The notes: generated by a model from the letters alone, not told the origin. A stretch of 64,000 nt of DNA from Acidobacteriota bacterium (GCA_005799825.1 SYFT01000024.1:11069-75068); one strand, 5' to 3'; positions 15,807 through 55,476 are shown, numbered from the stretch's first letter. Numbers and translations are program-made.

Positions 15807-17353
15807 GCGTTGCCTCCTGCGGGCCGGTCGAGATCAACGTCATGTGTGGCCAGCCGCATCACGGTCTCTTCGGTCGCGCCTGCCCCCGGCAATTCGCCGC
15901 GCAGATGCCCCTCGCGCATCACGAGAATGCGATCGGCTAGGGCCAGCACTTCGGGCAGATCGCTTGAGACCATCAGGCAGGCCATCCCGGCATCCGCCTG
16001 GTGCCGAATGAGGTTGTGAATCTCGAACTTGGCGCCGACGTCCACGCCCTTCGTGGGTTCGTCCAGCAGCAACACCTTCGGCGTGGTCGCCAACCACTTG
16101 CCGGCCACGATCTTCTGCTGGTTGCCGCCCGACAACGCGTCGGGCGTGACCTTCAGGTGGGGTGCCTTGATCGTGAGCGCCTCGACCTGGGCACGCGCGG
16201 CGGTTTCCTCACCCGCGTCACGAATGAGGCCCACGCCCTGCTTGGCGGCCAGCGGCAGCACCAAGTTGTGGCGGAGCGAGAGATTAAAAAACAGTCCCTG
16301 GCGCTGCCGATTCTCCGGCACCAGCGCGAGTCCAGCCCTGGCCGCATCTCGGGTCGAGCGCACGTAAATGGCTTGACCATCTACGGCCACCTGGCCCGCG
16401 TCCGGAGTGGCCAGACCGAAGAGGGTCTCGAGAATTTCGGTGCGGCCGGATCCCACCAAACCGAACATGCCGACAATCTCGCCAGGCGCCACCTGGAACG
16501 AGACATCCTCAAACGCGGGCCGCCTGGAGAGCCCGCGGACTTGCAGCGCTGGGGAACTGGGGAACTGGGGAACTGGGGAACTGGGGAACTGAGGAACTGA
16601 GGAACTGTGCGGCACGCGACGTGGTGGCTCACGGCCCACCATCGCCCGCACGATGTCGTCGGATGGTGTAGTCGCGCGCTCGAATGTGTCCACAAATTGG
16701 CCATCGCGCAGCACGGTAATACGGTCGCAGAGGCGATACACCTCCGGGAGCCGGTGCGACACGAACAGCACGGTGACGCCCTGCTGCCGCAGGCGTGTCA
16801 CCACGCCAAACAGGTGATCGACCTCGGCGTCGGTCAACGAGGTCGTGGGTTCATCAAGCACGAGCACACGGCAGTCGAAGGCAAGCGCGCGGGCGACCTG
16901 TACCAGTTGCGCGCATGCCGTCGACACATGTTGCATCGACGTGTCCGGGGTGACCGGCACATGGAGTTGCATCAGCAATTCCTGGGTGCGCGCGCGCATG
17001 GCCCGTTCGTCCAGCACTCCCCACCGGTTGGTGATTTCGCGGCCCGCGAAAATATTCGCGGTGACTGAGAGGTTGGGAAACGCGAGCATCTCCTGGTAGA
17101 CCATGCCGATGCCGTGTTCAAGCGCCTCACGTGGAGTGGAAAAGTGGATGCGTTCGCCGGCCCACGAGAGTGCTCCGCGGTCGGGCCTGATGATCCCGGC
17201 CAGAATCTTGAGCAACGTGGACTTGCCGGCGCCGTTTTCGCCGACACACGCGTGCGCGTCGCCGGCGGCGATCGTGAAGCTGACGCCGCGCAGCGCCTGT
17301 ACGGCGCCAAAGGCCTTCGCCACGTCACAAAACTCCAACCCGGCCGTTATCAT
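15803..17353 (-). CDS. Sugar ABC transporter ATP-binding protein, duplicated ATPase (RbsA/MglA-like), with repeat-encoded linker insertion
   Basis: Two nucleotide-binding domains. Walker A GENGAGKST and GLVGSGRTE. Signature LSGGNQQK. Walker B VLLLDEPT. ATG at 17353 (MITAGLEF) is preferred over the listed start at 17515. The linker HSSSVPQFPSSPVPQFPSSPA is encoded by the 8-bp repeat array. Confidence 0.85.
   Translation of the reverse strand: MITAGLEFCDVAKAFGAVQALRGVSFTIAAGDAHACVGENGAGKSTLLKILAGIIRPDRGALSWAGERIHFSTPREALEHGIGMVYQEMLAFPNLSVTANIFAGREITNRWGVLDERAMRARTQELLMQLHVPVTPDTSMQHVSTACAQLVQVARALAFDCRVLVLDEPTTSLTDAEVDHLFGVVTRLRQQGVTVLFVSHRLPEVYRLCDRITVLRDGQFVDTFERATTPSDDIVRAMVGREPPRRVPHSSSVPQFPSSPVPQFPSSPALQVRGLSRRPAFEDVSFQVAPGEIVGMFGLVGSGRTEILETLFGLATPDAGQVAVDGQAIYVRSTRDAARAGLALVPENRQRQGLFFNLSLRHNLVLPLAAKQGVGLIRDAGEETAARAQVEALTIKAPHLKVTPDALSGGNQQKIVAGKWLATTPKVLLLDEPTKGVDVGAKFEIHNLIRHQADAGMACLMVSSDLPEVLALADRILVMREGHLRGELPGAGATEETVMRLATHDVDLDRPAGGNA
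16551..16606. repeat. 8-bp tandem repeat array (GGGGAACT)x5 (GAGGAACT)x2 inside the ABC ATPase coding sequence
   Basis: Read directly: seven perfect head-to-tail octamers, 56 bp. On the coding (minus) strand they read AGTTCCTC x2, AGTTCCCC x5. Confidence 0.95.
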
Positions 17354-17362
17354 TTGGCGGTA

Positions 17363-17374
17363 ATCGTATACGAT
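17363..17374. promoter_or_regulatory. Perfect 12-bp palindrome ATCGTATACGAT in the divergent ABC-operon/galM promoter region
   Basis: Read directly. It lies 10 nt upstream of the ATPase ATG (17353) and 75 nt upstream of the galM ATG (17449). AT-rich relative to its surroundings. Confidence 0.3.
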
Positions 17375-17448
17375 CCCTTCAGGGTCCAGGCCTTGCCCGC
17401 CGTAGCGTAGAACGCGGAGGTAGGTCCGGAGTTCAAGAGGGGAACGCA

Positions 17449-18597
17449 ATGAGGCACACAGCGGTGGCGGTGATGGTTGGGATGGTTGCGGTGGGATGTG
17501 GTGGTGGTGAATCATCTCTGCCAGTGCCTGGCAACGACATCCGCATCACCTCGGTGCCCTTTGGCGCCACGGCCGACGGCACGCCCGTCGATGTCATCAC
17601 GCTTCGGAACGGCAAGGGCATCGAGATGACGGTGCTCACCTATGGCGGCATCATCATGTCGCTCAAGACACCGGATCGAAATGGCGTGGCGGACGACATT
17701 GTGATGGGCCACGACACCGTGGGCGGCTACGAGGCGAACTCTCCGTATTTCGGCAGCCTGATCGGCCGGGTGGGCAACCGCATCGCAAACGGCGCCTTCA
17801 CACTCGACGGCAAGGTACACACGCTCGCTAAGAACAACGGCCCGAACCACCTGCACGGCGGCCTCAAGGGCTGGGACAAGGTGGTCTGGAAGGCCGACCC
17901 GTTCCAGGACCGGACCGGAGCCGGTGTACGTCTGGAATACATAAGCGCCGACGGCGAAGAGGGGTATCCCGGCAAGGTCACCGCCCATGTGGTCTATACG
18001 CTGACGCCCGACAACACCTTGGTGGTGGACTACCACGCGACCACCGACACACCCACGGTCATCAACCTGACGCAGCACAGCTACTTCAACCTAGGCGGCA
18101 GGAAGACCACCGACATCCTGGGTCATGAATTGATGGTCAACGCCGACCGCTACACGCCGGTGAACTCCACGCTCATCCCCACCGGAGAACTGGCGCCAGT
18201 CGCCGGCACACCCTTTGACTTTCGCGCGCCCACGGCCATTGGCGCGCGCATCAACGACAAGAATACGCAGTTGGAATACGGCAAGGGCTACGACCACAAC
18301 TACGTGTTAACCCGGTCGGGCACCGGACTCGAACTGGCCGCGCGCGTGTATGAACCCACCACCGGCCGCACGCTTGAGATCTCAACCACAGAACCCGGCG
18401 TCCAGCTCTACACGGGCAACTTCCTCGACGGCACGATCACCGGTAAGGGCGGGCATGTGTATTCCTTCCGCTCGGGTCTCTGTCTCGAAACGCAGCACTA
18501 TCCCGACTCGCCGAACCAGAAGGGTTTTCCCTCGATCGAATTGCGGCCAGGCGGCGAATACAAATCAAAAACGGTCTTCGCCTTCGGCAGCCGCTAG
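17449..18597 (+). CDS. galM: Aldose 1-epimerase (galactose mutarotase), lipoprotein-type signal
   Basis: Mutarotase motifs NGPNHLHGG, NLTQHSYFNL, GLCLETQHYPDSPN. N-terminal MRHTAVAVMVGMVAVGC. Confidence 0.9.
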   Translation: MRHTAVAVMVGMVAVGCGGGESSLPVPGNDIRITSVPFGATADGTPVDVITLRNGKGIEMTVLTYGGIIMSLKTPDRNGVADDIVMGHDTVGGYEANSPYFGSLIGRVGNRIANGAFTLDGKVHTLAKNNGPNHLHGGLKGWDKVVWKADPFQDRTGAGVRLEYISADGEEGYPGKVTAHVVYTLTPDNTLVVDYHATTDTPTVINLTQHSYFNLGGRKTTDILGHELMVNADRYTPVNSTLIPTGELAPVAGTPFDFRAPTAIGARINDKNTQLEYGKGYDHNYVLTRSGTGLELAARVYEPTTGRTLEISTTEPGVQLYTGNFLDGTITGKGGHVYSFRSGLCLETQHYPDSPNQKGFPSIELRPGGEYKSKTVFAFGSR

Positions 18598-18912
18598 ATC
18601 ACGCGGCGATCACCACTACGCGGACGCTCGCTCTCCACGTGTCGCCAGTGCATGGCGCGTGCGCGCGCGGTCCCACGCCATGGCGCGCGATCCGGAGTTG
18701 AACACAATAAAGTCGCGCAGCGCGCGCTCATCCTGCCAGGCCGGCCGCGACGTCGCGCTCGCGGAACTGACGACAGACCTGATGATCGATCGCTTTGAGG
18801 CGGTCTACTCGACGCTTGGATGACTTCGCCTGGTGGCGTTGCGCCGATTGACCCGAGCGGTGGCCACCACGCAAGATAACGGCATCTGCCCGAACACACC
18901 GAATGGCTGGAC

Positions 18913-19512
18913 GTGGCACGCACGGCGACGGTCGACGACCTGCGCGAACTTATCCTGACGGGGTTCAAGATCGGCAAGCCGTTCACGCCGTATGTGCCCA
19001 CCCTCGCGTTGCCGTCACCGGTGGGCTGGGTGCTGGACTGCGGGTGCGGCGTCGGACGCCACTTCTCCTGTGTGCGAACCATCGGCCGCCACGTCGCGGG
19101 GTTTGACCTGCCGCCCAGGATCGCGCGATGCAGGGAACTGGCGCAGCAGGTGGAACTGCTGTCGGACGATTGGCCGTCGCCCAAGACGCGCCGCTTCGAT
19201 CTCATCTTCGCGTCGCTGGTGCTGTAACACATCGAAGTGGACGTGGTGCGCGGACACCTTCCTGATCTCGCGCGCATGGCGCCAGTGACCTATCTCCTGA
19301 CGCGCGACAGCAGTGATTTCGGCGTCAACGTGCTCGACCTGGTAGCCCAGAGCGAGGCCTTCGACGCCGGGGACTGCACCAAGGTCGATCACGATCCCGA
19401 GACGCACCAGCTTCGGGTGCTGGGACGAATGTCATTTGAGCAGGCGCGCCAGTCCACCGAACCTGCGCACTACGAGGTGCTGTTGCAGAGCAGCGGCTGG
19501 TATCAGCTTTGA
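18913..19512 (+). pseudogene. Class I SAM-dependent methyltransferase interrupted by an in-frame TAA
   Basis: Motif I VLDCGCGVGR, then FDLIFASLVL-TAA-HIEVDVVRGHLPDLARMAP. ORFs 18913..19227 and 19237..19512 share one frame. The stop at 19225-19227 sits where this family usually has Gln (VLQHI). Confidence 0.7.
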
Positions 19513-19609
19513 GACCGTCGCCTCGTAGCCACATACGGTCGATGCCCCGAAGGCACAAGCTTTCCCTTCCTCCCCCGATAGAGCGTTTTCGAGCGGCGGG
19601 TAGAGGACA

Positions 19610-19710
19610 CTCGGGCTTGAGGACCAGCCCGAGCTACGTTCCGGATGGATATCTGCTCGTGCGTAGCCCGATCCTTCCGCACGTAGCTCGGCCTGATTTT
19701 CAAGGCCGAG
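19610..19710. repeat. Pair of inverted REP-like hairpin elements (copies 2 and 3)
   Basis: Forward copy CTCGGGCTTGAGGACCAGCCCGAGCTACGT (19610-19639). Inverted copy ACGTAGCTCGGCCTGATTTTCAAGGCCGAG (19681-19710). A partial GCGTAGCCCGATCC lies between them. The pair sits between convergent genes. Confidence 0.6.
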
Positions 19711-19734
19711 GCCTACACGCAAACGAAAAAGGCT

Positions 19735-20181
19735 TTAATTCACGTAGAGCGGCCGTATCTGGAACAGGATGTAGAGCCCGATCAGGCCGCCGATGAGGGC
19801 GCCGAGAATAGACCCGCTTAGCAGAGAAAAGACGATCCCGACCAATTGGGAATAGAACATCAGCGTCCACGCAGACTTCTTGCGCGAGAACAGCCCAGGC
19901 AGCGCCAATCCGAGCAGCACCAACTGGGCCAGCAGCACAACCGTGAGGTAGGTGAACCCGGCGGCGTAGCCCACACCGCCAAACGGCACCATCGCCGTGC
20001 CGATACCGAGCATGAGGAGCAGGCCCGGCAGCGAGAGCACCAGTAGAACAAGAGCGATCCATGGACCGAACTTGACCAGGAACTCCCGGATCTCGCCGGG
20101 AATCTGGAACGGGGCTTTCTGGACGAGATAGAAGTCGAGGAACCCAACGAGGTCGCGCGGTGCCTGATCGGATGCAGTCAT
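19735..20181 (-). CDS. Small integral membrane protein of unknown function
   Basis: ATG at 20181 is preceded by AGGAGG. Four predicted TM segments (WIALVLLVLSLPGLLLMLGIG, FTYLTVVLLAQLVLLGLALPGL, and others). Confidence 0.6.
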   Translation of the reverse strand: MTASDQAPRDLVGFLDFYLVQKAPFQIPGEIREFLVKFGPWIALVLLVLSLPGLLLMLGIGTAMVPFGGVGYAAGFTYLTVVLLAQLVLLGLALPGLFSRKKSAWTLMFYSQLVGIVFSLLSGSILGALIGGLIGLYILFQIRPLYVN

Positions 20182-20216
20182 CAAAGCCTCCTGAGTAGAC
20201 GTCGCGGCATTGTAGT

Positions 20217-21749
20217 TCAAAGGGCTCCGCGCAGCCGCCCTTCTGCTTCGGCATACCGCTTCCTCAAATCGGCGTAGGTCGCCACGGCCGATTCGTGCGG
20301 GGAGACCCGGCTCGCCGCCAGCGGAGCGGCCAGATCCCTGACGACCTCGGGCCAAGGCACCGGGTCGGCTGACGCGGCCGCATCGGCGTGCCACGCCCGC
20401 AGGGCGGACCCCAGGCACGCGGAGTTACCGACCGGGAACTGATAAACGTCTGCGTCGAACACGTTGGCCATGACCTGTAATACGTCGCGGTTGGCGGCGG
20501 CGCCGCCGGTGGCGTGGATGCGCCGCACGCCCACGCCCATCCAGCGCGAGTGATTGGCCATGGCCATCATCTGCGCTTCCACCACCGCCCGCACATTGCC
20601 CGGCACATCGTCAGGCTCCAGGCCGACACGGCGCACGCCTGGCACTGGGACGTCGGGCGTGATTTCGGGATCGAACCACGGAAACATGAATCGCCCGAGG
20701 TTGCCGGTGGGTGTTGAACGTAGACTTTCCGAGAAACCGGCCCAGTCAAGCCCATAGGCGTCACGTACCCGTTCACGCGCCAGCGATCCGTTCTTGAAGA
20801 CGGTGATTCCCATGAAGTCGCCGGTCGGCGCACCGAACACGTGGCCGATGCCGCCTGGGTCCACTCTCGATTCCCGCATGATGCCGGCGACCGTGTCACT
20901 CGTACCGAGCGAGACAACGACGTGGCCGTCGGTCACCAGGCCCGTGCCAACGAGGCTCGACGAGTTGTCGCCAGTCCAGGCGATGATGCGCGCGGGGGGC
21001 AAACCATACTTCGACTGCCAGCGTGGCGCCAGTGTGCCAATCACGCTGGCCGACGGCACGATCCGCGGCAGCTTCGAGAACAAACCGGGCGCCGTGGCGT
21101 CAACCGCTGGCGGCCACCACTCATTGGCCGCGACATCCATGAGGTTCATTCCGCTGCCATCGCCGGGATCAAGCGGTGCATCCGCGCCGAGCAGCTGTGA
21201 CGCAAGGAAGGAACTGATCAGGTGGATGCGTGCAGTGCCGACGTACGCCTGCGGGTCGGCCTTGTAGAACTTTCGAATCTGCGGCCCGGCGAAACGTTCG
21301 TACGCGCGTGATCCGGTGCGCTGGGCCAGCACCGCAGCACCGCCAACCGTCGCAGTGATCTCTGCGCACTCCTCGCGCGTGCTGCTGTCCATCCAGATCG
21401 GGGATACCGATCTGGTGTACGCCTCGTCGCTGCCAAGATACACACTGCCGTGCTGCTGCGCACATCCACTGATGGCGCAGAGTCGGCTCATGTCGACGCC
21501 GCACCCGGCCACTCGAGCCAGCATCTGCTCCAGCGCCTTAACCCACATTGCCGGAGACGAGACTCTGACGAGCGGGTCGACTGAGGGCAACACTCCATGG
21601 ACGGTGCCGAACTCTGGGAACGCCTCGTCAAACGGCATCACGTGCTGCCAGAGGACTTCGGCTCGACCGGCGGTGACACCGATGAGAATGGCCGACAGGC
21701 TTTGCGTCGAGCTGTCGAACCCGAGGTAACACCTCTGCGGGTGGCTCAC
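20217..21749 (-). CDS. FGGY-family carbohydrate kinase (xylulokinase-like)
   Basis: N-terminal YLGFDSSTQSLSA, and C-terminal HATGGAAANRDVLQVMANVF typical of the FGGY fold. 4-bp overlap with the upstream oxidoreductase. Confidence 0.75.
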   Translation of the reverse strand: MSHPQRCYLGFDSSTQSLSAILIGVTAGRAEVLWQHVMPFDEAFPEFGTVHGVLPSVDPLVRVSSPAMWVKALEQMLARVAGCGVDMSRLCAISGCAQQHGSVYLGSDEAYTRSVSPIWMDSSTREECAEITATVGGAAVLAQRTGSRAYERFAGPQIRKFYKADPQAYVGTARIHLISSFLASQLLGADAPLDPGDGSGMNLMDVAANEWWPPAVDATAPGLFSKLPRIVPSASVIGTLAPRWQSKYGLPPARIIAWTGDNSSSLVGTGLVTDGHVVVSLGTSDTVAGIMRESRVDPGGIGHVFGAPTGDFMGITVFKNGSLARERVRDAYGLDWAGFSESLRSTPTGNLGRFMFPWFDPEITPDVPVPGVRRVGLEPDDVPGNVRAVVEAQMMAMANHSRWMGVGVRRIHATGGAAANRDVLQVMANVFDADVYQFPVGNSACLGSALRAWHADAAASADPVPWPEVVRDLAAPLAASRVSPHESAVATYADLRKRYAEAEGRLRGAL

Positions 21750-22747
21750 GGAACTTCCCAGCCCCCTGACGCAGCAGAGCGGAACGCCGCGTCGATGGCG
21801 GCCATGTTCTTCACCGACAGCTCGAGCGGATACGGCGCCGCGCGTGATTCCAGAATGGCGAGCGACAATTCGTCGCCTTGCGCGCGATACTGATCACACG
21901 CCGGAATCTCGAGCGTCTCCACGGTCTCGCCCAATAGATCGCCATGTGAATCCACAAAGAGGCGGCACGGCCGATCGGGCGGCGCATTAAAGGGAATTTC
22001 GACCTCGAGCCGTCCGCGTGTGCCAAAGACCTGTACGCGCTGGTAGGGCGCCAACCGCGTGCTGCAAACACCGATCGCCTGACCCGAGGGGTAGTCCAGC
22101 ATCAACGAGGCGAGAGTATCGACGCCCGACGCCGGGTCGCGCTCCACTAGGCTCATGACCCGTCGGGGTTCCTCGCCAAAGATCATCCGCGACGTCATGA
22201 TCAGATAACATCCGATATCCATCAGGCCACCACCACCCCACTCAACGACATTGCGGATATTGGTGGGGTCGTCGTTGAAATAGCTGAAGGCGCCGACGTA
22301 CGAACGCACGTCACCAAGACGGCCAGAGCGACACACGTCCAGGACACGCAGCCACTGCGGAGCAGACCGCACCATGAACGCTTCCTGGATGACCACCCCT
22401 GTACGATCGCGAACGCCGATCAGAGTCTGCGCGTCGCCCGCCGACAAGCCAACCGGCTTCTCGCACAACACATGTTTGCCGGCCTCCGCCGCTCGCGTCG
22501 TCCACGGCACGTGCAGATGGTTCGGCAACGGGTTGTAGATAGCGTCCACGTCGGGATCGGCGAGCAGGGCCTCATACGATCCGTAGGACTTCGGGATGCC
22601 GAGTGCAGTGGCGGTCGAAAGAGCCGTCGACGCTTCGCGCGATGCAATCGCCACCACCTCGGTGTACGTCCCGCCCTGCATGGCGGGAATCACCTTGTTC
22701 ACACCAATCTTCGCGGTGCTCAGTACGCCCCATCTGATCTTGTGCAT
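21746..22747 (-). CDS. Gfo/Idh/MocA-family NAD(P)-dependent oxidoreductase
   Basis: Rossmann N-terminus IRWGVLSTAKIG and the conserved EKP motif (VLCEKPV). Confidence 0.85.
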   Translation of the reverse strand: MHKIRWGVLSTAKIGVNKVIPAMQGGTYTEVVAIASREASTALSTATALGIPKSYGSYEALLADPDVDAIYNPLPNHLHVPWTTRAAEAGKHVLCEKPVGLSAGDAQTLIGVRDRTGVVIQEAFMVRSAPQWLRVLDVCRSGRLGDVRSYVGAFSYFNDDPTNIRNVVEWGGGGLMDIGCYLIMTSRMIFGEEPRRVMSLVERDPASGVDTLASLMLDYPSGQAIGVCSTRLAPYQRVQVFGTRGRLEVEIPFNAPPDRPCRLFVDSHGDLLGETVETLEIPACDQYRAQGDELSLAILESRAAPYPLELSVKNMAAIDAAFRSAASGGWEVP

Positions 22748-22908
22748 TTGTCAATCGACAATTTACCTCAGTCGAGGTCGTCGGGGCGTGGGGAGTCTGG
22801 CGCAGCGGTGCGGAATAACCCGCCACGACTGCCTAGCGCCGAGCGCAGGACATTTCTCAATCCGGCCTCAGCGCGTGGCTCGCATCTTGCTTCGTTGAGG
22901 GCCCCACT

Positions 22909-24486: not shown

Positions 24487-24496
24487 GCTTTCGGGT

Positions 24497-24967
24497 ATGT
24501 TGCGAACCCTGATGATGTGTGGAGGCCTTCTGATGGTGGCGATTCCGTTGACCGCGCAGACCCAGTTACCCACCAAACGTGTGCTGACACTGGAGGCGGC
24601 GCGACGCGTCGTGGCGGCGGCCGAAGCCGAGGCCCGCAAGAACAACTGGGCCGTGTCGATTGCGGTGCTCGACGACAGCGGACACATGATCCTCTTCCAG
24701 CGAATGGACGGTGCCAAACTCGTGGCCACGGACATTGCGATACGCAAGGCGCGCACGGCCGTCTACTTCCAGGGGCCGACCAAGGATTTGGAGGCAGAAG
24801 TCGCCGGTGGCCGAACCGCACTGTTGCCCATCGAGGGATTCATGCCGCTCGAAGGTGGTGTGCCATTGATGTCAGGCGGCCAACTCGTCGGCGCGGTCGG
24901 CGTGAGCGGAGTCAGCGGCGCTCAAGACGCGCAGTGTGCGCTCGCGGGCGCCGCGGCGATCAAGTAG
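24497..24967 (+). CDS. GlcG/HbpS-like (DUF336) heme-binding protein, secreted
   Basis: Signal peptide MLRTLMMCGGLLMVAIPLTAQ. Family pattern AVSIAVLDDSGHMILFQRMDGA...GGVPL...GAVGVSGVSGAQDAQCA. Confidence 0.8.
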   Translation: MLRTLMMCGGLLMVAIPLTAQTQLPTKRVLTLEAARRVVAAAEAEARKNNWAVSIAVLDDSGHMILFQRMDGAKLVATDIAIRKARTAVYFQGPTKDLEAEVAGGRTALLPIEGFMPLEGGVPLMSGGQLVGAVGVSGVSGAQDAQCALAGAAAIK

Positions 24968-24988
24968 CGCCTCACTCAAATAGGCGCC

Positions 24989-26290: not shown

Positions 26291-26390
26291 ACGGCCTTTG
26301 CGTCAGGCTTCTGCAGGCGACAGACGCACAACAAAGCCCCAGGCAAGCCACTGAAAGATGCCCACCTTGGCGCCAAGTCAGAGTGCACGC

Positions 26391-30436: not shown

Positions 30437-30536
30437 TACCTGCTCCTAGTTACGAGTGTCTAAATAGTCACTTAGACCCGGCCTTCCGTCAATGACCACA
30501 TCGCCCTCGTTGCGCCGTGATTGATAGCGTCAGTAT

Positions 30537-30998
30537 ATGATCCGGCTCATGCCGCAAAAGCTTCGAACCTCTCTCGTTTTGTCTCTCGCCGGACTCGCGG
30601 TCATGGCAACCGCCGTCTCTGTCAAAACCGTCGTCACGCCTTCTGCCCAGGCCGCCCGCTGGACCATTCCGACCGGGGGCGCCGCCGAAGCAAACCCGCT
30701 GCCGATCAACGCGGCCACACTCGCCGGGGGCAAGAAGTTATTTGCTGCCAAATGCCAACGCTGCCATGGACCCGCGGGTAAGGGCGATGGTCCGGATGCG
30801 GACGCAAAGTACGCCGCGGAGATGGACCTGACCAACGTGGCGCGCGCTTCCCGCAATTCTGATGGCACGGTATTTTACAAGATCTGGAACGGGCGCTCGA
30901 ACCCGAAGATGCCCGCCTTCTCGGAAGACACCTCCAAAGAACAGGTCTGGGCCATCGTCGCCTATGCTCAGTCGTTGAGGAAACCGCCCAGTTCCTAA
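30537..30998 (+). CDS. Class I c-type cytochrome (periplasmic)
   Basis: Signal peptide, then heme motif CQRCHG (FAAKCQRCHGPAGKGDGPDA) and a distal PKMPAF Met ligand region. The stop TAA lies in the first unit of the octamer array. Confidence 0.8.
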   Translation: MIRLMPQKLRTSLVLSLAGLAVMATAVSVKTVVTPSAQAARWTIPTGGAAEANPLPINAATLAGGKKLFAAKCQRCHGPAGKGDGPDADAKYAAEMDLTNVARASRNSDGTVFYKIWNGRSNPKMPAFSEDTSKEQVWAIVAYAQSLRKPPSS

Positions 30999-31044
30999 GT
31001 TCCTAAGTTCCTAAGTTCCTAAGTTCCTAAGTTCCTAAGTTCCC
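30990..31044. repeat. 8-bp tandem repeat array (AGTTCCTA)x6 plus a partial unit
   Basis: Read directly. It fills the gap between the cytochrome c gene and the next ORF (GTG at 31046). Confidence 0.95.
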
Positions 31045-31045
31045 G

Positions 31046-31474
31046 GTGTCCTCCTCCGATCCTGCCGGCCACTTTGAACAGCGACTCTTCATCGCGGCAA
31101 AGCCGGCTGACGTGTTCGCGTGTTTTGGGGGTCATGCCGCGCTACAGGTCTGGTGGCAGGTGACGCACGCGGTGGTCACGCCGGTGCCGTTTGGCGTGTA
31201 TGAAATCGAATGGGCGCCGACGTCGTACCGCGACGACCTGTTGGGGCCGCTGGGAGGCGTCTTCCGCGGGACGGTGGTGGATGTGCGTCCGGGCCAGCAG
31301 TTCCTGGTCGCCGACTGCTGATGGGTGCCACCCGAGGGGGACGCACTGGGGCCGGTGGCGCTGCACGTCAGCGGCCAACCTGAAGGCACGGGCTGCCGGT
31401 TGGTGGTGCGCCAGGACGGCTACGAGCCGTCGACGCGGTGGCGGCGATACTACGCGGTCGCGTCGCGCAGTTAG
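31046..31474 (+). pseudogene. SRPBCC/AHSA1-like small protein interrupted by an in-frame TGA (pseudogene, or candidate Sec codon)
   Basis: ORF 31046..31321 ends ...QQFLVADC-TGA. The same frame continues WVPPEGDALGPVALHVSGQPEGTGCRLVVRQDGYEPSTRWRRYYAVASRS to a TAG at 31472-31474. The continuation looks coding-like. Confidence 0.55.
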
Positions 31475-31528
31475 CCACTCTCGCTGACCGCGCTTCGGCG
31501 TCGGGCCGAAGAGCGCCATTCGGCGCAC

Positions 31529-31858
31529 TCAGTCCGCTGACGCGCCAGCGGTGCCCACCTTGAGCGCCTTCGCCAGCCCGATGGCGAGCGGCGCAGCCAG
31601 GAAACTCAAACGCGCCCCCATCTTGGCTTGATCGAGGTACGACGAGGTGACCGGAAACGCCGCAGTTGTGAAACATAGCGCGACGGTGAATCCGATCCTT
31701 GCGGCAATGCCAATCACCACCATCGAACGATTCTCGAGGCCGACGGCTCTGGGAAATCCGAACGCGCCGGCCATCATCGCAAACGCGACGATGCCCAGCG
31801 GCTTGCCGATCACCAGGCTGCCCAGGACCATCCCCATCGCGTCGTCCGCAATGGCCAT
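31529..31858 (-). pseudogene. nhaA: 3' fragment of a Na+/H+ antiporter NhaA gene (last ~105 codons only)
   Basis: GMVLGSLVIGKPLGIVAFAMMAG...MVVIGIAARIGFTVALCFTTAAF...LDQAKMGARLSFLAAPLAIG aligns by eye with the E. coli NhaA C-terminus (LLIGKPLGISLF...GIGFTMSIFIASLAF...WAKLGILVGS). The first ~280 residues of the family are absent. Confidence 0.65.
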
Positions 31859-32228
31859 CGTCGAGCAGCAGGCGCTGGCCCCGCGAGACAGAGGAGAACA
31901 ACGGGGCAAAGGACGTCGGGATGCAGCCTGGCCCATCCTCGTCGTCGCCCAGCGTCACCAGCACCTCGGCACCGGCTGTCAGCGTGATCGGTGATGCGAG
32001 GTGGCCGGTCCGAATCTTCGGGCCGGACAGGTCCTGGAACACGAGTATGTTGCGGCCCACCGCCTGTGCCTGCGCGCGAACGGCGCCGCACGCGGCCGCG
32101 TGTTCCTCGGCCGTGCCGTGAGAACAATTCAGACGGCACACATCTACGCCCGCGGCAATCAAGGCGCTAATCACATCGCCGTCGATGGTGGCTGGGCCGA
32201 GCGTGCCGATGATCTTGGTGCGTCTCAT
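31854..32228 (-). pseudogene. pyk: 5' fragment of a pyruvate kinase gene (first 125 codons only)
   Basis: MRRTKIIGTLGPAT...CRLNCSHGTAEEH...FQDLSGPKIRTG...GQRLLLDDG matches the PK N-terminus. Beyond DDG the listed 314-aa ORF is Arg/Gly-rich nonsense running antisense-free through the nhaA fragment in another frame. Confidence 0.7.
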
Positions 32229-32295
32229 GGGCGAAATGTCTGAGGCAGCGTACAATCGCGGAAGCGGGACGGGCAAGGGCCGAGGAGACATTATT

Positions 32296-33024
32296 GTGAA
32301 AACGAGATTCATAGGAGCAGTGCTTGCGGCTCTGGTGCTGATGGCGGCGCCTGCGTGCGCTCAAACGTCCGAGATCGAGGCGCTGCGAAGAGAGTTGGCG
32401 GCGGTCAAAGAGGACCTGGCTAATTTGCGCGCCTCGCTTGGCCGCCCTCGGCCCGAGGTCGATCTCACGGGCGCGCCGACCAAAGGCAACCCCGACGCCC
32501 AGGTCGCGCTGATGGAATTTTCAGACTACGAATGCCCGTTCTGCATCCGGCACTTCCGCGAAACGATGCCGATGATTGAAAAGAACTACATTGCCACGGG
32601 GAAGATCCTGTATGCCTTCCGCGACTTTCCCATCGATGTGCTGCATCCGCAGGCGGTGAAGGCGCATGAGGCGGCGCAGTGCGGCCTGGAGCAAGGCAAG
32701 TTCTGGGAGATGCACAACACGCTCTTCGGCGCACCCGCGCAGCATTCGGTGGAAGGGCTCGAAGCGACCGCCACACAGGCCGGCGTGAATCTGGCTCCGT
32801 TCCGCGAATGCATTGCGAGCGGGCGCACGACTGCGGGCATCAGGAAGACTGCCGAACTTGCGGCCAGCTTCGGCGCCAACGGCACGCCGGCATTTTTTAT
32901 CGGCCTTGTGGACAAGGTCACCAATCAGGTCAAGGTTACTCGCGCGATCAGCGGTGCCATTCCGTTTGCGCAGTTTGCACAGGCTCTTGAAGCGGCGCTG
33001 GCGCAGGCGGCTGTGAACAAATAA
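32296..33024 (+). CDS. DsbA-family thiol:disulfide oxidoreductase (secreted, N-terminal coiled segment)
   Basis: GTG at 32296 is preceded by GGAGA. Signal peptide. Active site CPFC in FSDYECPFCIRHF. Terminal GTPAFFIG thioredoxin-fold cis-Pro region. Confidence 0.8.
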   Translation: MKTRFIGAVLAALVLMAAPACAQTSEIEALRRELAAVKEDLANLRASLGRPRPEVDLTGAPTKGNPDAQVALMEFSDYECPFCIRHFRETMPMIEKNYIATGKILYAFRDFPIDVLHPQAVKAHEAAQCGLEQGKFWEMHNTLFGAPAQHSVEGLEATATQAGVNLAPFRECIASGRTTAGIRKTAELAASFGANGTPAFFIGLVDKVTNQVKVTRAISGAIPFAQFAQALEAALAQAAVNK

Positions 33025-33194
33025 GAAGGGCGAGGCCTCGCGCGCCTGATCCCACGCGCTCGACGCGTCTGGCGGCACATACGCCTCACTGGCTGCTTTT
33101 CTAATCGGCAGACAACAGATTGACCGCATCGTCATACAGCGCGGTCAATGGTGAAGCTTCATGTTCTTCATGGTGACAGCTCTTAGTGCCAGCT

Positions 33195-34298
33195 CTAGCG
33201 CCACGGGTCCACAAGCGCCTTGGGGATCACCATGGATTCGGCAACCGCGAGGGCATCGTTGATTTGCCCGAGTCCGTAGGTGCGGGCGCCGATCAGGTGC
33301 CATGGAATTTCGTGATGGTAACGTTCGAGCACTTGCAGGGCACGCAGGAAGTGCCCCACCTGGCTGCCCCAACAGCCACGGATATCCAGGTGCTTGCGGT
33401 TGATGTGTTCGTGCGCGTTCACCGTGCTGTCGCCCGTGTTGGTGTAGTGACCGGCGATCACATAGGCGCCGCCGTTGCGCGCCATGCGCAGGCCTTCCTC
33501 GAACGCGCGCGCGGAGCCGGCCGCCTCAATCACGACGTCAGCCCCTCGGCCGCCAGTGAGCGCCAGCACTTCTTCAAGCCGCTGTTCGGGCGTCGTCGAG
33601 TCAATGTTGACGACCACGTCCGCGCCCATCTGGCGCGAAAGGTCCAGGCGGCTTTCAGGCGCGCCAACCGCGATGACCTGACCCGCACCTGCTTTGCGGG
33701 CAAGCGCGGCCGCGCTCATCCCCACCGCACCCGCGCCTTGCACAACGACGGTATCGCCAAGGACGATCTGTGAGCGTTCGATGATGTGCACGGCCGTCAG
33801 CAGGCCGCAGCCGCCGCCGATGTACGACTCGAACGACACACCATCCGGCAACTTCGCGACGACCACTCCCGGTTCGAGGTAGACCTTCTGCGACCAGCCG
33901 CCAAACAGCCCTTCGGTCGCCGAATCGGTGATGCCATACACCCTGCGCGACGGACACCGCGTGGGTGTGCGATGCGCAGTGCACGCCAGGCAGCGGCCGC
34001 ATGTGCGATGCACGTCAAAAAACGCCAGCCTGTCGCCTTCCCGTAATACGCGCCCCTCAGGATCCGTCAATGTGCCCCTGACAGAGTCGAGCGTGCCGGT
34101 GGTCACATGACCGGGAATGATTGGGTACGGTACCCCGGAAAGCCGCCCATGCCACAGGTGCACGTCGGTGCCGCAGACTTCCGACATCGCGGTGCGCAAC
34201 AGCGCGCCGCCCAAGGGCAACTCGGGTTCAGTGAATTCACGGATTTCGACAGGCACGAGCGGTGCCGGCATCACGGCGGCAAGTACAGTACGTGGCAT
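33195..34298 (-). CDS. Zinc-dependent alcohol dehydrogenase-family (MDR) oxidoreductase
   Basis: Catalytic-zinc region EVCGTDVHLWHG. Structural zinc CGRCLAC. NAD fold VVVQGAGAVG. ATG at 34298. Confidence 0.8.
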   Translation of the reverse strand: MPRTVLAAVMPAPLVPVEIREFTEPELPLGGALLRTAMSEVCGTDVHLWHGRLSGVPYPIIPGHVTTGTLDSVRGTLTDPEGRVLREGDRLAFFDVHRTCGRCLACTAHRTPTRCPSRRVYGITDSATEGLFGGWSQKVYLEPGVVVAKLPDGVSFESYIGGGCGLLTAVHIIERSQIVLGDTVVVQGAGAVGMSAAALARKAGAGQVIAVGAPESRLDLSRQMGADVVVNIDSTTPEQRLEEVLALTGGRGADVVIEAAGSARAFEEGLRMARNGGAYVIAGHYTNTGDSTVNAHEHINRKHLDIRGCWGSQVGHFLRALQVLERYHHEIPWHLIGARTYGLGQINDALAVAESMVIPKALVDPWR

Positions 34299-34332
34299 CG
34301 GGTACGATATCCTCGCCGAAGAGCTTACCCTG

Positions 34333-35673
34333 ATGACGTTGCCCGCCACCATGGTGGAGGCCGCTGCTGCGCTGCGCGCTGGCCGGCTCACCTCCACCGC
34401 ACTCGTCGAACGCAGCCTCCAGGCCATTGCGCACCATGATGCGGCCACGCACGCCTTCATTCGCATCGACGCAGAGGGCGCACACGCAGCCGCCCGACTG
34501 GCTGATCAGGAACGCGCCCGCGGTGTCGACCGTGGTCCGCTGCATGGCCTGCCGATTTCGCTGAAAGACTTGATTGATATCGCGGGCCAGCCAACCACCG
34601 CCGGCTCGCGCGTATGTGCCGACCGCGTGGCCACAGCCGACGCGCCCATCACCGCGCGATTGCGCCAGGCAGGCGCCGTGCTCATTGGAAAAACGAACCT
34701 GCACGAGTTTGCGCTCGGTACCACGAGTGAAGACTCGGCGTTCGGCCCGGTACTGCACCCCGTTGATCACACACGGTCGGCGGGCGGCTCCAGCAGCGGC
34801 TCTGCGGTCGCGGTCGCCACCGGGATGGGCCTGGCCTCGGTCGGTACCGATACCGGCGGCTCGATCAGGATTCCAGCCGCGGTGTGTGGCGTGGTTGGAC
34901 TCAAGCCATCACAAGACGACGTGCCGGTAGACGGTGTAGTCCCCCTGAGCGCGACGTTCGACCATGTAGGTCCGTTGGCGCGCTCGGTGCAGGACGCCGC
35001 GTGGTTGTGGTCGGTGCTCGCCGCCCGCCCCATTCACACCGTGCATCACGCCGACTTCAGGAACCTGCGCCTTGGACTTCTCGGCGGATACTTCGCGCAT
35101 CCGGTGGATGCGGTGGTCGCCACCGCGTTTGCGCGCGCGTGTGAGTGCCTTCGCTCGGCCGGAGTCCGCATCACGGATGTGACGGTGGACTCTGCGCAGA
35201 CCATTACCGAGGCGTACGGCAACATCGTCTTGCCCGAAGGCGCTGCGTGGCACGCGCCGTGGCTCGACAGCCGGAGCGGTGACTATTCGCTCGCGGTGCA
35301 CGGTCGCCTGATCAGTGGAAGACAGATTTCCGCGGTGGACTACCTCAGGGCCCGCGCGACCTGCGAGAGGCTCCGCCAGGAAGTGGACCAGTCGCTGTCC
35401 ACCGTCGATGCCCTGATCCTGCCGACACTGCCGATTGTGGCGCCTATCAGCGGCCAGACTGACGTGACGATTGACGGCACGGGAATGCCCGTGCGCACGG
35501 CGATGCTCAAACACACTCAGTTGTTCAACATGACCGGGCACCCGGCGATCACCCTGCCACTTGACACCACGGGTTTGCCCGCCGGCTTTCAAGTGGTTGG
35601 CCGCCGGGGCGCCACTTCGCGGCTGCTCGACATCGCCGCCGCTTGCGAAACACTATGCCCGTTCCCTCGCTGA
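34333..35673 (+). CDS. Amidase (amidase-signature family, GatA-like)
   Basis: Amidase signature GGSSSGSAVAVATGMGLASVGTDTGGSIRIPAA. Confidence 0.85.
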   Translation: MTLPATMVEAAAALRAGRLTSTALVERSLQAIAHHDAATHAFIRIDAEGAHAAARLADQERARGVDRGPLHGLPISLKDLIDIAGQPTTAGSRVCADRVATADAPITARLRQAGAVLIGKTNLHEFALGTTSEDSAFGPVLHPVDHTRSAGGSSSGSAVAVATGMGLASVGTDTGGSIRIPAAVCGVVGLKPSQDDVPVDGVVPLSATFDHVGPLARSVQDAAWLWSVLAARPIHTVHHADFRNLRLGLLGGYFAHPVDAVVATAFARACECLRSAGVRITDVTVDSAQTITEAYGNIVLPEGAAWHAPWLDSRSGDYSLAVHGRLISGRQISAVDYLRARATCERLRQEVDQSLSTVDALILPTLPIVAPISGQTDVTIDGTGMPVRTAMLKHTQLFNMTGHPAITLPLDTTGLPAGFQVVGRRGATSRLLDIAAACETLCPFPR

Positions 35674-36074
35674 CCGTAATTGCCGCACTCGCCGCCCTGC
35701 ATGATGGCGCGCTGTACATCGACGTCCGCTCAAGCGCGGAGTATGCGCAAGGTCATCCTGCCGGCGCGATCAATGTGCCCCTGCTCGACGCCGACGAGGA
35801 CACGGGCCAGGTATTGCCCAACCCCGACTTCGTGCGAGTCATGAAAGCGAACTTCGCACCCGACGCCTTGCTGCTCATCGGCTGCGAGGCGGGCAGCCGT
35901 TCGGGCCGCGCCGCGCAGATACTGGAAGTCTTCGGTTTTGTCAGTGCCGCAAGCGTCGTGGGCGGATACGTCGGCTGGCGCGCAGCAGGCCACGCAGTGG
36001 AGACATCAGTTCCCGTCGGCCGCACCTACGCGGATCTCCTCGCAAGGGCCGAAGAGAACGTACACGAGACATGA
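35655..36074 (+). CDS. Rhodanese-domain sulfurtransferase
   Basis: YIDVRSSAEYAQGHPAGAINVP, and active-site loop CEAGSRS. Confidence 0.8.
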   Translation: MPVPSLTVIAALAALHDGALYIDVRSSAEYAQGHPAGAINVPLLDADEDTGQVLPNPDFVRVMKANFAPDALLLIGCEAGSRSGRAAQILEVFGFVSAASVVGGYVGWRAAGHAVETSVPVGRTYADLLARAEENVHET

Positions 36075-36143
36075 AGGCCTGCAGGAACTCCCCACTTTCT
36101 GGTCCTTCAGTTCCTTCATGCCTCGTGTGTACAAAGGTGTTGC

Positions 36144-36356
36144 CTAAAGGTACTTGAAGAGGCCCTTGAGGGCCTCGGCGATGACTGAGAACAACGCCTG
36201 CATGGCCGGCCAGACATCACCTTCCGACATCTTGGAGGCGGCGTCGGCAACAGTCACGGGCGCCGTGAGCAGAAGCCACACGGTGGCCGCCGCCATCGTG
36301 GTCGCGACAAGCCCGACGATCGCGACCAGGCTCACGCTCCAACGGGCAAGGGACAT
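36144..36356 (-). CDS. Small hypothetical membrane protein
   Basis: 70-aa ORF starting 6 nt after the qor stop. One clear TM helix WSVSLVAIVGLVATTMAAATVWLLL. No family recognised. Confidence 0.4.
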   Translation of the reverse strand: MSLARWSVSLVAIVGLVATTMAAATVWLLLTAPVTVADAASKMSEGDVWPAMQALFSVIAEALKGLFKYL

Positions 36357-36362
36357 CGCCGG

Positions 36363-37394
36363 TTAGTTTACAGCGAGCACGATCTTGCCGAATTGGTTCC
36401 CGGTGGCCAGTCGGCTCTGCGCCTCGGCCGCCTCGCGCAGCGGGTAGGTCGAATCGACAACTGGCGCGTAACGTCCCTGAAAAAACCCACCGGCGGCCGC
36501 CAGCAGTTCTGTCTTCGACCCCATGTAGGACCCGACAAACGTCAACTGCCGTGCAAACAGGTGCCGGAGGTCCAGCGAGACTTCGAATCCGGTTGTCGCG
36601 CCGCACGTCACCAGACGGCCACCCTTGGCCAGGGAACGGACGCTCTGATTCCACGTGGCCGCGCCCACGTGTTCAATCACGATATTCACCCCTCGCCCCT
36701 CTGTGAGCGCCTTGACGCGCTTCGGCACATCCTCTCGGGTGGAGTCGATCGCGTGATCGGCACCCAGGGCACTGGCCCGGGCGCATTTGTCCTCGCCGCG
36801 AGCGGTGGCGATGACTCGGGCCTGCGCCGTTTTCGCAATCTGGATCGCGGCCTGTCCCACGCCACTGCCGGCCGCGACAACGAGCACCGTGTCGTCACCT
36901 TTCAGGTGGCCGCCGGCAAACAACATGTGCCAGGCGGTCAGGAAAGTCAGCGGAAATGCCGCAGCACTGACGAAGTCGATCCTGTTCGGAATCGGGATGA
37001 TATTTTCTGCCGGAACCGCGACCATCTCGGCGTATCCGCCTGCAGACTGGTACCCCAGCACGTCATAGCGGTCGCATTGGTGATCACGATCTGAAAGACA
37101 TGCACCGCAATGTCCACAACTCAGACCCGGTTGCAGCATCACCCGCTGGCCGACCGCGAGACCCGAGACGCCCTGGCCCAATTCGGCGATGGTGCCCGCC
37201 ACATCGGCGCCTGAAACATGAGGGAGCGGCAGCGTCACGCGGTCCAGCCCACCCCGCTGCCAGAGATCCAGGTGATTGACCGCGCAGGCGGCGACGCGCA
37301 CCAGCACGTGACCGGCGCGCACCTCGGGATCGGGAGCGTCCTCGTACACCAGCACCTCTGGCCCACCGTGCGTATGAAATCTGATCGACTTCAT
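36363..37394 (-). CDS. NADPH:quinone oxidoreductase-like zinc-type alcohol dehydrogenase
   Basis: MDR fold. Motifs CAVNHLDLW, CGHCGAC, VVAAGSGVGQAAIQIA. Confidence 0.85.
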   Translation of the reverse strand: MKSIRFHTHGGPEVLVYEDAPDPEVRAGHVLVRVAACAVNHLDLWQRGGLDRVTLPLPHVSGADVAGTIAELGQGVSGLAVGQRVMLQPGLSCGHCGACLSDRDHQCDRYDVLGYQSAGGYAEMVAVPAENIIPIPNRIDFVSAAAFPLTFLTAWHMLFAGGHLKGDDTVLVVAAGSGVGQAAIQIAKTAQARVIATARGEDKCARASALGADHAIDSTREDVPKRVKALTEGRGVNIVIEHVGAATWNQSVRSLAKGGRLVTCGATTGFEVSLDLRHLFARQLTFVGSYMGSKTELLAAAGGFFQGRYAPVVDSTYPLREAAEAQSRLATGNQFGKIVLAVN

Positions 37395-37433
37395 TTCCCC
37401 AGTTCCCCAGTTCCTAAGTTCCTGAGTTTCCTA
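37393..37433. repeat. Degenerate 8-bp tandem array (ATTTCCCC AGTTCCCC AGTTCCTA AGTTCCTG AGTTTCCT)
   Basis: Read directly. It occupies the whole gap between the M16 gene stop (37431-37433) and the qor start (37392-37394). Confidence 0.9.
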
Positions 37434-54869: not shown

Positions 54870-54945
54870 TGGTGGACCTGACCGGGATCGAACCGGTGAC
54901 CTCCTGAATGCCATCCAGGCGCGCTCCCAGCTGCGCCACAGGCCC
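54870..54945 (-). tRNA. tRNA-Ala (anticodon GGC)
   Basis: 76 nt: GGGCCTG-TG-GCGC-AGCTGGGA-GCGC-G-CCTGG-ATGGCAT-TCAGG-AGGTC-ACCGG-TTCGATC-CCGGT-CAGGTCC-A-CCA. Cloverleaf folded by hand. G3:U70 alanine identity pair present. Encoded CCA. Confidence 0.9.
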
Positions 54946-55378: not shown

Positions 55379-55476
55379 GGAAGCTCCCGGGGCCCGGTGG
55401 CCCTCCCGGTCTTCAAAACCGGCCGCTCCCCGCCTCCGGCGGGAAGGGTGGGTTCGACTCCCACGAGCTTCCGCCA
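55379..55476 (+). tRNA. selC: Selenocysteine tRNA, tRNA-Sec (anticodon UCA)
   Basis: 98 nt: GGAAGCTC-CC-GGGGCC-CGGT-GGCCCT-C-CCGGT-CTTCAAA-ACCGG-(long variable arm CCGCTCCCCGCCTCCGGCGGGAAGG)-GTGGG-TTCGACT-CCCAC-GAGCTTCC-G-CCA. It has the 8-bp acceptor stem, 6-bp D stem with 4-nt loop, 5-bp T stem and long extra arm of bacterial tRNA-Sec. It parallels E. coli selC segment by segment. Confidence 0.9.

Follow-up and report, generated by a model that had tools for sequence, protein, structure and literature searches.

Why does one 8-bp unit recur in tandem at several separate places of a bacterial genome, and what decides where such arrays persist? We asked this of a 64,000-nt stretch of DNA from an Acidobacteriota bacterium (GCA_005799825.1, SYFT01000024.1:11069-75068; hereafter the window, with positions counted from its first letter). 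Direct reading of the sequence identified three head-to-tail arrays, which we call A1, A2 and A3, built on the consensus unit AGTTCC[C/T][C/A], or [G/T][G/A]GGAACT on the opposite strand. The evidence presented below makes it probable, in our view, that these arrays belong to a dispersed family of long simple-sequence repeats that is driven by slippage and filtered by selection on translation.

A1 (16549 to 16607, minus strand) comprises seven units, two of AGTTCCTC followed by five of AGTTCCCC. A2 (30990 to 31045, plus strand) consists of six AGTTCCTA units and a final AGTTCCCG, and A3 (37393 to 37433, plus strand) of five partly decayed units, ATTTCCCC, AGTTCCCC, AGTTCCTA, AGTTCCTG and AGTTTCCTA. 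Tandem Repeats Finder (TRF) reported a period of 8, with matches of 98 to 100% for A1 and A2 and of 80 to 90% for A3. When one mismatch was allowed, the two-unit pattern AGTTCCNNAGTTCC was found 17 times in the window, compared to 0.11 times expected from shuffled sequences, none of which reached 17 in 100 shuffles. The three octamer arrays named in the original prediction are therefore present, and 16 of the 17 matches lie inside them. Lone units outside the arrays were not enriched (6, compared to 3.4 matches expected by chance in the whole window), so the family exists only as arrays, and we rejected an enrichment of isolated units resembling uptake sequences or HIP1. The variants differ in their stop codons: AGTTCCTA carries TAA in every frame on one strand and TAG in every frame on the other, AGTTCCCC has no stops on either strand, and AGTTCCTC is stop-free in the forward direction, with TGA in all frames in reverse. 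The stop-codon arithmetic that had been put forward for the TA variant and for the stop-free variant is thus correct on both strands.

The window has a G+C content of 63 to 67%, and its host is an uncultured soil member of the Acidobacteriota, probably of the Vicinamibacterales. Members of the protein cluster of P0002, which are about 92% identical to the ATPase in which A1 lies, are named Acidobacteria or Acidobacteriota bacterium, and ATPase homologues at 68 to 70% identity are named Vicinamibacterales bacterium. The same organism is represented in at least five independent assemblies (three NCBI metagenome-assembled genomes [MAGs], two ENA assemblies, and a Logan assembly), and the same arrays with the same flanks recur in at least five such assemblies, contrary to what an assembly artifact would produce. 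Copy number had been predicted to be polymorphic, and it is. The contig L118 aligned with the window over 21,032 nt with 2 mismatches and one 24-nt gap, which leaves A2 with 3 TA units instead of 6, and L123 aligned over 20,837 nt with 3 mismatches and one 8-nt gap, which leaves A1 with 6 units instead of 7. The only indel in each of these alignments of about 21 kb, with their 2 to 3 single-nucleotide polymorphisms (SNPs), falls in an array. The arrays thus change by whole 8-bp units, gained or lost, at a much higher rate than the DNA around them.

Arrays can also serve as break or join points between loci. Three further contigs break off inside A2. In L124 (ERZ27257034 k141_12449, 407 kb; region 10687 to 10830), the match with the window runs to position 16558, within A1, and the contig then passes into a TauE/glutamate-dehydrogenase/methylmalonyl-CoA-mutase locus. 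The native order of that locus is given by L184 (about 3427 to 3462), a contig of the same organism that is 99.97% identical to the second part of L124. There, a 670-aa open reading frame (ORF) with no Pfam match is followed by a stop, by CTTCCCC(AGTTCCCC)3AGTTCC, and by TauE. Given this native array, the genome of the window organism has at least four arrays, and L124 represents an array-to-array join. The A1-A4 junction protein is found on two contigs, of 407 kb and 1.09 Mb, and the join is either an array-to-array recombination event or an assembly chimera.

The arrays had been thought to sit in very short gaps between co-directional genes. This is true of A2 (47 nt) and A3 (36 nt) but not of A1, which lies inside a gene (15803 to 17353, minus strand) encoding a 516-aa sugar (rhamnose/ribose-type) ATP-binding cassette (ABC) transporter ATPase with two ABC_tran domains (Pfam). 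Read in frame as ..SSSVPQFPSSPVPQFPSSP.., A1 gives a Ser/Pro-rich linker sequence where the two nucleotide-binding domains are joined. The predicted protein matches the database entry P0001 at 100% identity, and its remoter homologues, at about 73% identity or less, are mostly 494 to 499 aa long and lack the insert. In the near-identical strain L123, the 6-unit array causes a frameshift that splits the ATPase. The 90%-identity cluster of the host protein holds the in-frame 516-aa allele (4 contigs), a frameshifted 278-aa N-terminal fragment (2 contigs), a separate 221-aa C-terminal fragment (4 contigs), and a rearranged 267-aa allele (2 contigs). At the A1 position, the relative L165 (82% identical) carries four in-frame AGTTCCCC units, the differences between relatives being multiples of three units. 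Within the P0002 lineage, whose protein is 92% identical to that of the window, the alleles P0002 and P0126 measure 518 and 510 aa, a difference of exactly three units; P0136 is a frameshifted allele, and in P0139 the array has decayed into ordinary linker sequence. A1 is the only array of the three in which a unit not divisible by 3 lies within a gene, and its in-frame and out-of-frame alleles coexist. The orthologous linker of L125 (8001 to 9563) holds (CCATTGCC)5 instead, and the linkers of L127 (8001 to 9548) and L128 (330 to 1898) hold in-frame GCCGGGTCTTTAGACCCGGC hairpins. With other small repeats in the same position in these more distant relatives, the linker is a permissive site and a hot spot for such repeats. 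The L127 and L128 linkers contain one or two in-frame palindromes of the form GCCGGGTCT(T/A)(T/A)AGACCCGGC, read as ..AGSLDPA...

A2 lies at the end of a gene for a 153-aa cytochrome c (30537 to 30998, plus strand; Pfam Cytochrom_C and Cytochrome_CBB3). It begins two codons (Ser-Ser) before the TAA of this gene, so that it supplies both the C-terminal tail and the stop, occupies the entire 47-nt gap, and leaves 0 nt between its last base and the GTG with which the following reading frame starts. That frame, which is AHSA1/SRPBCC-like (31046 to 31540, plus strand), starts with GTG, has no purine-rich ribosome-binding sequence, and is interrupted by an in-frame TGA (31319 to 31321) and TAG (31472 to 31474) where the L125 ortholog has Trp. 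The same stops are found in L118 and L121. Judged from its sequence, the frame is probably a pseudogene, and its decay possibly followed when A2 broke its coupling to the cytochrome c gene. L125 has no array at the A2 site; its cytochrome c has a different, longer tail, and the gene overlaps the AHSA1-like gene by 17 nt. In the window, A2 stands in place of this junction. We sought promoter and terminator matches around A2 and found none near the array.

A3 fills the 36-nt gap between an upstream gene for a 468-aa M16 peptidase (37431 to 38837, minus strand; Pfam Peptidase_M16 and M16_C) and a downstream gene for a 343-aa zinc-type alcohol dehydrogenase (ADH)/quinone oxidoreductase (36363 to 37394, minus strand; Pfam ADH_N and ADH_zinc_N). 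On the sense (minus) strand of these genes the array reads TAGGAAACT CAGGAACT TAGGAACT GGGGAACT GGGGAAAT(G), or TAG-GAAACTCAGGAACTTAGGAACTGGGGAACTGGGGAA-ATG, and it thereby supplies the TAG of the peptidase gene, a Shine-Dalgarno-like GGGGA that precedes the ATG by 9 nt, and some of the dehydrogenase ATG itself. A3 is unchanged in all five other assemblies, and the exact dehydrogenase protein is present on 10 contigs.

The claim of a dispersed family was borne out beyond the window. A genome scan with one genome per species for (AGTTCCNN)3AGTTCC returned at least 117 loci from many phyla, a metagenome scan for AGTTCC[CT][CA] arrays returned at least 120 loci, and the unit recurs in many Acidobacteriota and Vicinamibacterales MAGs as well as on metagenome contigs. 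Among the matches listed, 27 of 117 came from Acidobacteriota or Vicinamibacterales MAGs, and most of the matches from these groups carry the variants of the window (CC, TC, TA), often on several contigs per MAG. Many arrays of the family, A1 among them, are of the stop-free GGGGAACT/AGTTCCCC type. Outside the Acidobacteriota, we found no evidence that the AGTTCC core is special, and for the biosphere at large it probably is not. In viral contigs, which are not the collection used in the genome scan, three control cores matched to AGTTCC in base composition were at least as frequent (8, 10, and 7 loci, compared to 4), and we rejected the idea of a special core shared across phyla. The scan-hit loci contain, in addition, 81 octamer arrays built on other units, many of which are one mutation away.

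To describe placement, we used 99 arrays in high-GC loci among the matches listed, the loci having been chosen by a pattern of about four perfect units. Merging gave 94 array loci, of which 36 were co-directional, 22 convergent, and 4 divergent; 24 were one-sided, with no called gene on the other side, and 8 lay inside ORFs. Background gaps from the same loci numbered 311 co-directional, 94 convergent, and 75 divergent (convergent versus divergent, P = 0.005). In co-directional gaps, arrays lay at a median of 10 nt from the upstream stop, compared to 93 nt from the downstream start. Arrays no more than 30 nt from a gene 3' end numbered 51, and those equally close to a 5' end numbered 18. In 44 of the 51 cases at 3' ends (P = 1e-7), the sense strand has the form [G/T][G/A]GGAACT, typically as ...GGAAC TGA GGAACTGAGGAACT... 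or ...CTT TAG GAACTGGGGAACT....

Under a broader definition of an array, those that overlap the stop codon were found at a ratio of 33:3 in the stop-supplying orientation (P = 2e-7), and such arrays make up more than a third (36 of 95) of those with an adjacent gene 3' end. The orientation bias was absent away from the stop (14:8 at 1 to 30 nt, 11:8 at 31 to 100 nt, and 9:9 beyond 100 nt). Given that the bias is confined to stop-overlapping arrays, it is explained by the need for a stop, and we rejected the directional function that the 44:7 bias at 3' ends might have implied. For the same reason, stop content seems to be what allows an array to be tolerated at a gene end and not what the array is for. 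The proposal that the TA variant is a compact bidirectional translation stop therefore holds as a description of its sequence, but we found no evidence for it as a function.

Of the arrays inside ORFs, all eight in the AGTTCCYM set have AGTTCC as the sense strand, which is the stop-free reading, and the ratio was 11:5 in favor of this sense when any NN was allowed. Three of the eight lie well inside their ORFs, and five lie within 200 nt of the listed start, where the ORF may be overextended. Of the 10 abutting ORFs that we checked, 8 are real genes with Pfam domains (EamA, M24 peptidase, NAD synthase, FtsZ, and others), the matches of abutting genes mostly running to the end of the model. A k-mer survey of the 200-nt flanks of the 99 arrays found no motif shared by more than about five loci. 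With spacer-less head-to-tail units in the range of 1 to 11 nt, above-chance runs, whole-unit length polymorphism, and unconserved flanks, the arrays have the properties of long simple-sequence repeats.

We considered and rejected RNA structure and membership of a known RNA family. The AGUUCCNN strand is unstructured, with minimum free energies of -2.6 to -5.4 kcal/mol (z = +1.8 for A2, -0.2 for A1, and +0.3 for A3); the complementary strand folds not significantly better than shuffles for A1 and A2; and Rfam gave no match at the arrays, only two tRNAs elsewhere in the window. G-tracts of at least three G's are present in GGGGAACT units (A1 and two units of A3). A G-quadruplex (G4) is predicted for (GGGGAACU)4, at -26.4 compared to -2.8 kcal/mol, and for the G-rich strand of A1, the antisense strand of its gene, allowing G4 brings a gain of 17 kcal/mol. 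The TAGGAACT and GAGGAACT units, which make up A2 and about half of the family, have GG runs only and no predicted G4.

The likeness to the cyanobacterial STRR heptamers noted in the original prediction is apt, in that CCCCAGTT equals STRR1 CCCCAGT plus one T. The STRR definition calls for a heptanucleotide unit and a cyanobacterial host, and here the period is 8 and the homologues are Acidobacteriota-named. The heptamer units of Nostoc are reportedly the STRR repeats of Mazel and colleagues (1990). The accompanying suggestion that no other comparable family is known was not supported, as dispersed 7-nt families with the same positional bias have been described (PMC4692102, PMC4679880). The heptamers GGGAATC of Xanthomonas and GGGGA(C/T)T of Nostoc PCC 7120 are spread over the genome and mostly intergenic, have mean distances of 28 nt to the upstream ORF and 160 nt to the downstream ORF, are rare between divergent ORFs, and are highly variable in length, and no function has been shown for them (Rehm et al. 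2015, PMC4692102). Like these repeats, the octamer arrays are mostly intergenic, lie nearer to the upstream gene and mostly within about 50 bp of its stop with their G-rich strand as the sense strand, are rare between divergent genes, and vary widely in length among relatives. The units are also nearly the same (GGGGAACT here, GGGGACT in Nostoc). Unlike the heptamers, they have an 8-nt unit and an Acidobacteriota host, they vary at positions 7 and 8 so that about half (GAGGAACT, TAGGAACT) are without G-tracts or a predicted G4, and they very often overlap and supply the stop codon.

Other repeat families share some of these features. The TAACTGA repeats of marine Beggiatoaceae, some Cyanobacteria, and Bacteroidetes contain stops in all frames in one direction, overlap upstream stops, and occur in ORFs only in the stop-free orientation (MacGregor 2015, PMC4679880). 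The octamers resemble them in these respects, and in-ORF copies of TAACTGA lie at the protein periphery or at domain junctions. TAACTGA differs in being a heptamer of unrelated sequence that is mostly found in the forward orientation a few nucleotides upstream of a start, whereas the octamer arrays are nearer to the upstream stop, so the octamer family has neither the unit nor the placement of the Beggiatoaceae repeats. As far as later papers relate it, the survey of Mrazek et al. (2007) found repeats with units of 5 to 11 nt in large, high-GC genomes of nonpathogens, heptamers being dominant; in the same accounts, long simple-sequence repeats with units not divisible by 3 are mostly noncoding, and polymerase slippage is the accepted mechanism (PMC4679880, PMC4692102). 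To the extent of those accounts, our arrays are alike in being head to tail, longer than expected by chance, and hosted by a high-GC environmental bacterium, and unlike in being octameric with one dominant unit. Small repeats within genes are also known from contingency loci, such as the tetranucleotide repeats of Haemophilus and the pentanucleotide repeats of Neisseria. Phase-variable contingency loci are described from host-adapted pathogens (reviewed in PMC11868660). A1 resembles such loci in being coding, in having a non-triplet unit, and in showing in-frame and frameshifted alleles in near-identical strains, and the family differs in its free-living soil host, its 8-nt unit, the nutrient importer in place of a surface antigen, and the location of most arrays outside genes. 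Like REP/BIME elements and MITEs, the arrays are small repeated DNA at gene 3' ends and between convergent genes, but they have no palindromic unit or terminal inverted repeats, no hairpin more stable than that of shuffled sequence, and no conserved ends. We found no description of an AGTTCC octamer family in the literature searched, which is weak evidence. The octamer family is a counterpart of the 7-bp families of Xanthomonas, Nostoc, and Beggiatoa and not a new kind of element.

How might such a family arise and persist? Under the reading that we favor, slipped-strand mispairing at replication or repair would add and remove units, the family would serve no dedicated function, and tolerance by translation would decide where each array persists. 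Stop-free AGTTCC(C/T)C arrays would survive in frame in flexible linkers, where they read SSPVPQFP, and arrays at gene 3' ends would survive only when they stop translation at once, with TGA from GAGGAACT, TAG from TAGGAACT, and TAA from AGTTCCTA. Divergent gaps, which bear promoters, would largely exclude arrays, and over time arrays would come to fill the neutral space from the stop codon to the next functional signal. As by-products, A1 would turn a sugar ABC importer on or off through frameshifts, A2 would have taken the place of the cytochrome c tail and broken the coupling to the downstream gene, and A3 provides a stop codon together with a Shine-Dalgarno-like sequence. Several points weigh against this reading. 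Slippage accounts for length change and not for the presence of the same unit at many unrelated loci. The chance birth of 8-mers would give a different unit at each locus, so that some seeding route is needed, and candidates include ectopic recombination, template switching, or an enzyme. We infer that the sharp peak at the stop codon (36 of 95) reflects the erosion of neutral flanks. In addition, the family-wide gene calls are crude picks of long ORFs by high G+C content at third codon positions (GC3), the family-wide loci were selected by a pattern of about four perfect units among the matches listed, and the A1 frameshift allele and the A1-A4 junction come from short-read metagenome assemblies.

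The concentration of arrays at stops could also be taken to mean that they act after the stop codon, as backup stops in every frame, as Shine-Dalgarno-like, purine-rich pads (GAGGAA, GGGGAA) that keep ribosomes in place for reinitiation, or as sites for an RNA-binding protein with a preference for GGA. The 33:3 preference of overlapping arrays for a stop-supplying, purine-rich sense orientation is consistent with this, as are the GGGGA of A3 at 9 nt before the ADH start codon and the regulatory roles proposed for the similarly placed Xanthomonas/Nostoc and Beggiatoa families (PMC4692102, PMC4679880). We nevertheless consider such a role unlikely: there is no orientation preference once the array is off the stop, many arrays consist of stop-free GGGGAACT units, the 22 arrays in convergent gaps have no downstream gene to reinitiate, A2 has the opposite orientation and is followed by a gene that looks dead, copy number is free to vary between near-identical strains, and no function could be shown for the analogous heptamers (PMC4692102). 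A1 invites a different reading, in which the arrays are adaptive contingency loci whose gain and loss of units reversibly switches genes such as that of the sugar ABC importer, as bet hedging in soil. The position of A1 within coding sequence, its unit not divisible by 3, its in-frame (7 and 4 units) and out-of-frame (6 units) alleles in strains that differ by 3 SNPs in 20 kb, and the additional frameshifted allele P0136 of the P0002 lineage all argue for this. Most arrays are intergenic, where frame is irrelevant, and only 3 of the 94 merged loci lie well inside ORFs; the genes that hold or adjoin arrays serve ordinary housekeeping and metabolism, as in Xanthomonas, for which phase variation was considered unlikely (PMC4692102); and the off alleles may be deleterious polymorphisms or pseudogenization. 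We therefore regard adaptive switching as distinctly unlikely.

The pileup at stop codons and the presence of one unit at hundreds of unrelated loci might together point to an active process at the end of translation or transcription, which we think quite improbable. Seeding or expansion of the arrays may then be templated where the nascent RNA is first free of ribosomes, by an R-loop, a sense-strand G4, or template switching. A directional role may follow as well, the sense G-rich RNA being invisible to Rho and the antisense C-rich (AGUUCCCC)n being an ideal Rho loading site. If so, the arrays would be a generated or selected gene-boundary device, and on/off switching of the transporter would be a by-product. 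Four-stranded structure is also the basis of another candidate, in which the arrays would be G4 regulatory repeats that act through DNA or RNA, as in GGGAATC of Xanthomonas and GGGGA(C/T)T of Nostoc. Such a structure is predicted for (GGGGAACU)4 and for the G-rich strand of A1, and the arrays share the placement of the heptamer families near stops, on the sense strand, and rarely between divergent genes (PMC4692102). The TA and TC variants have no predicted G4, and they account for A2, for much of A3, and for about half the family as a whole, and the G-rich strand of A1 is antisense to its gene, which leaves this reading very unlikely. The same unit at many unrelated loci is more than slippage alone would produce, and this, along with the other small repeats in the ATPase linker of relatives (L125, L127, L128) and the REP-like hairpin that adjoins some arrays, could suggest footprints or cargo of a MITE- or REP-like mobile element or the product of a dedicated octamer-adding enzyme. 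Given that the flanks of the arrays are not conserved, that terminal inverted repeats and target duplications are absent, that the REP-like motif is beside only about 5 of 99 arrays, and that the window holds no array-linked candidate transposase or reverse transcriptase, we consider this highly improbable. Finally, three contigs end in A2 and one changes locus in A1, as assembly or adapter artifacts might do. Contig breaks at repeats are expected assembler behavior, the arrays have identical flanks and lie in contig interiors in independent NCBI, ENA, JGI, and Logan assemblies, and orthologous arrays are kept in frame in relatives at 82 to 92% identity, so that an artifact is almost certainly the wrong explanation.

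The arrays described here extend the little-understood dispersed repeat families with units of 5 to 11 nt, so far mainly heptamers, to an octamer in the Acidobacteriota, an abundant and little-studied soil phylum. The window and its sister assemblies provide an unusually clean natural experiment, with indels only in arrays amid about 20 kb of otherwise near-identical DNA. A sugar importer is put out of frame by one array, and another coincides with an apparent rearrangement junction. The arrays have practical consequences too, as they break short-read assemblies and create split-gene and false-start annotations, and they could be used as strain-typing (variable-number tandem-repeat) markers for uncultured Vicinamibacterales. 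They also sharpen the question common to the heptamer families of how a single unit comes to occupy many loci, and of the reason for the buildup of arrays at stops. Octamer-repeat-rich genomes may be commoner than the heptamer literature suggests.

A second kind of small repeat was found near some arrays. In L229 (88.8% identical), (TAGGAACT)4 begins precisely with the stop codon of a gene for a 148-aa protein; in the window, this gene ends in TAA followed by REP-like hairpins, without an array. Along with the empty A2 site in L125, this shows that arrays are gained and lost at orthologous positions. The hairpins lie at 19610 to 19633 (CTCGGGCT..AGCCCGAG) and 19682 to 19710 (CGTAGCTCGGCCT..AGGCCGAG). 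Elements of the form CGTAGC.CGGCCT...AGGCCG adjoin arrays in L023, L177, L240, L251, and L253, and the REP-like hairpins look like a second small repeat family of the lineage. We considered a composite element of array and hairpin (CGTAGC.CGGCCT..AGGCCG) and rejected it because the hairpin adjoins only about 5 of 99 arrays.

Several loci from the scans were unusual in their own right. Many adjacent octamer arrays of different units, with up to 45 copies, are present in some loci from other phyla, namely L079 (654 to 1003), L093 (5983 to 6880), L099 (5258 to 7963), L006 (751 to 4910), and L114 (5922 to 6281); the hosts of these multi-unit loci are Ramlibacter, Bacteroidales, Bacteroidaceae, Cytophagales, and Acidimicrobiia. 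The Saprospiraceae MAG M2_metabat2_scaf2bin.095 has AGTTCCTC arrays on at least eight contigs. In some Vicinamibacterales MAGs (L013, 194 to 330; L094, 3969 to 4070; L031; and L109), (AGTTCCNN)n is directly followed by (NNGGAACT)n, its reverse complement, or by (AACCTTGG)n, and such array pairs would make long imperfect intergenic hairpins. At about 2690 to 2760 of L087, (AGTTCCTC)3 adjoins a sequence that resembles the 3' half of a tRNA (..GGTTCGAATCCCTGCCTCCCAGCCA) and could be an integration-site remnant.

Two stretches of the window that had been taken for relics of the octamer array do not belong to the family and have no 8-bp periodicity. The one at 36083 to 36115 is part of an imperfect inverted repeat (36062 to 36128) between convergent genes and was misidentified because this repeat holds one GGAACT/AGTTCC pair. 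Its 16-nt arms, ACACGAGACATGAAGG and CCTTCATGCCTCGTGT, lie between a rhodanese gene and a 70-aa gene, and the structure is terminator-like, without a T-tract. The supposed relic at 54675 to 54704 is a 15-bp in-frame tandem duplication (54671 to 54700), located near a selenocysteine tRNA (55379 to 55472, plus strand; Rfam, 63.7 bits) and a second tRNA (54873 to 54945, minus strand).

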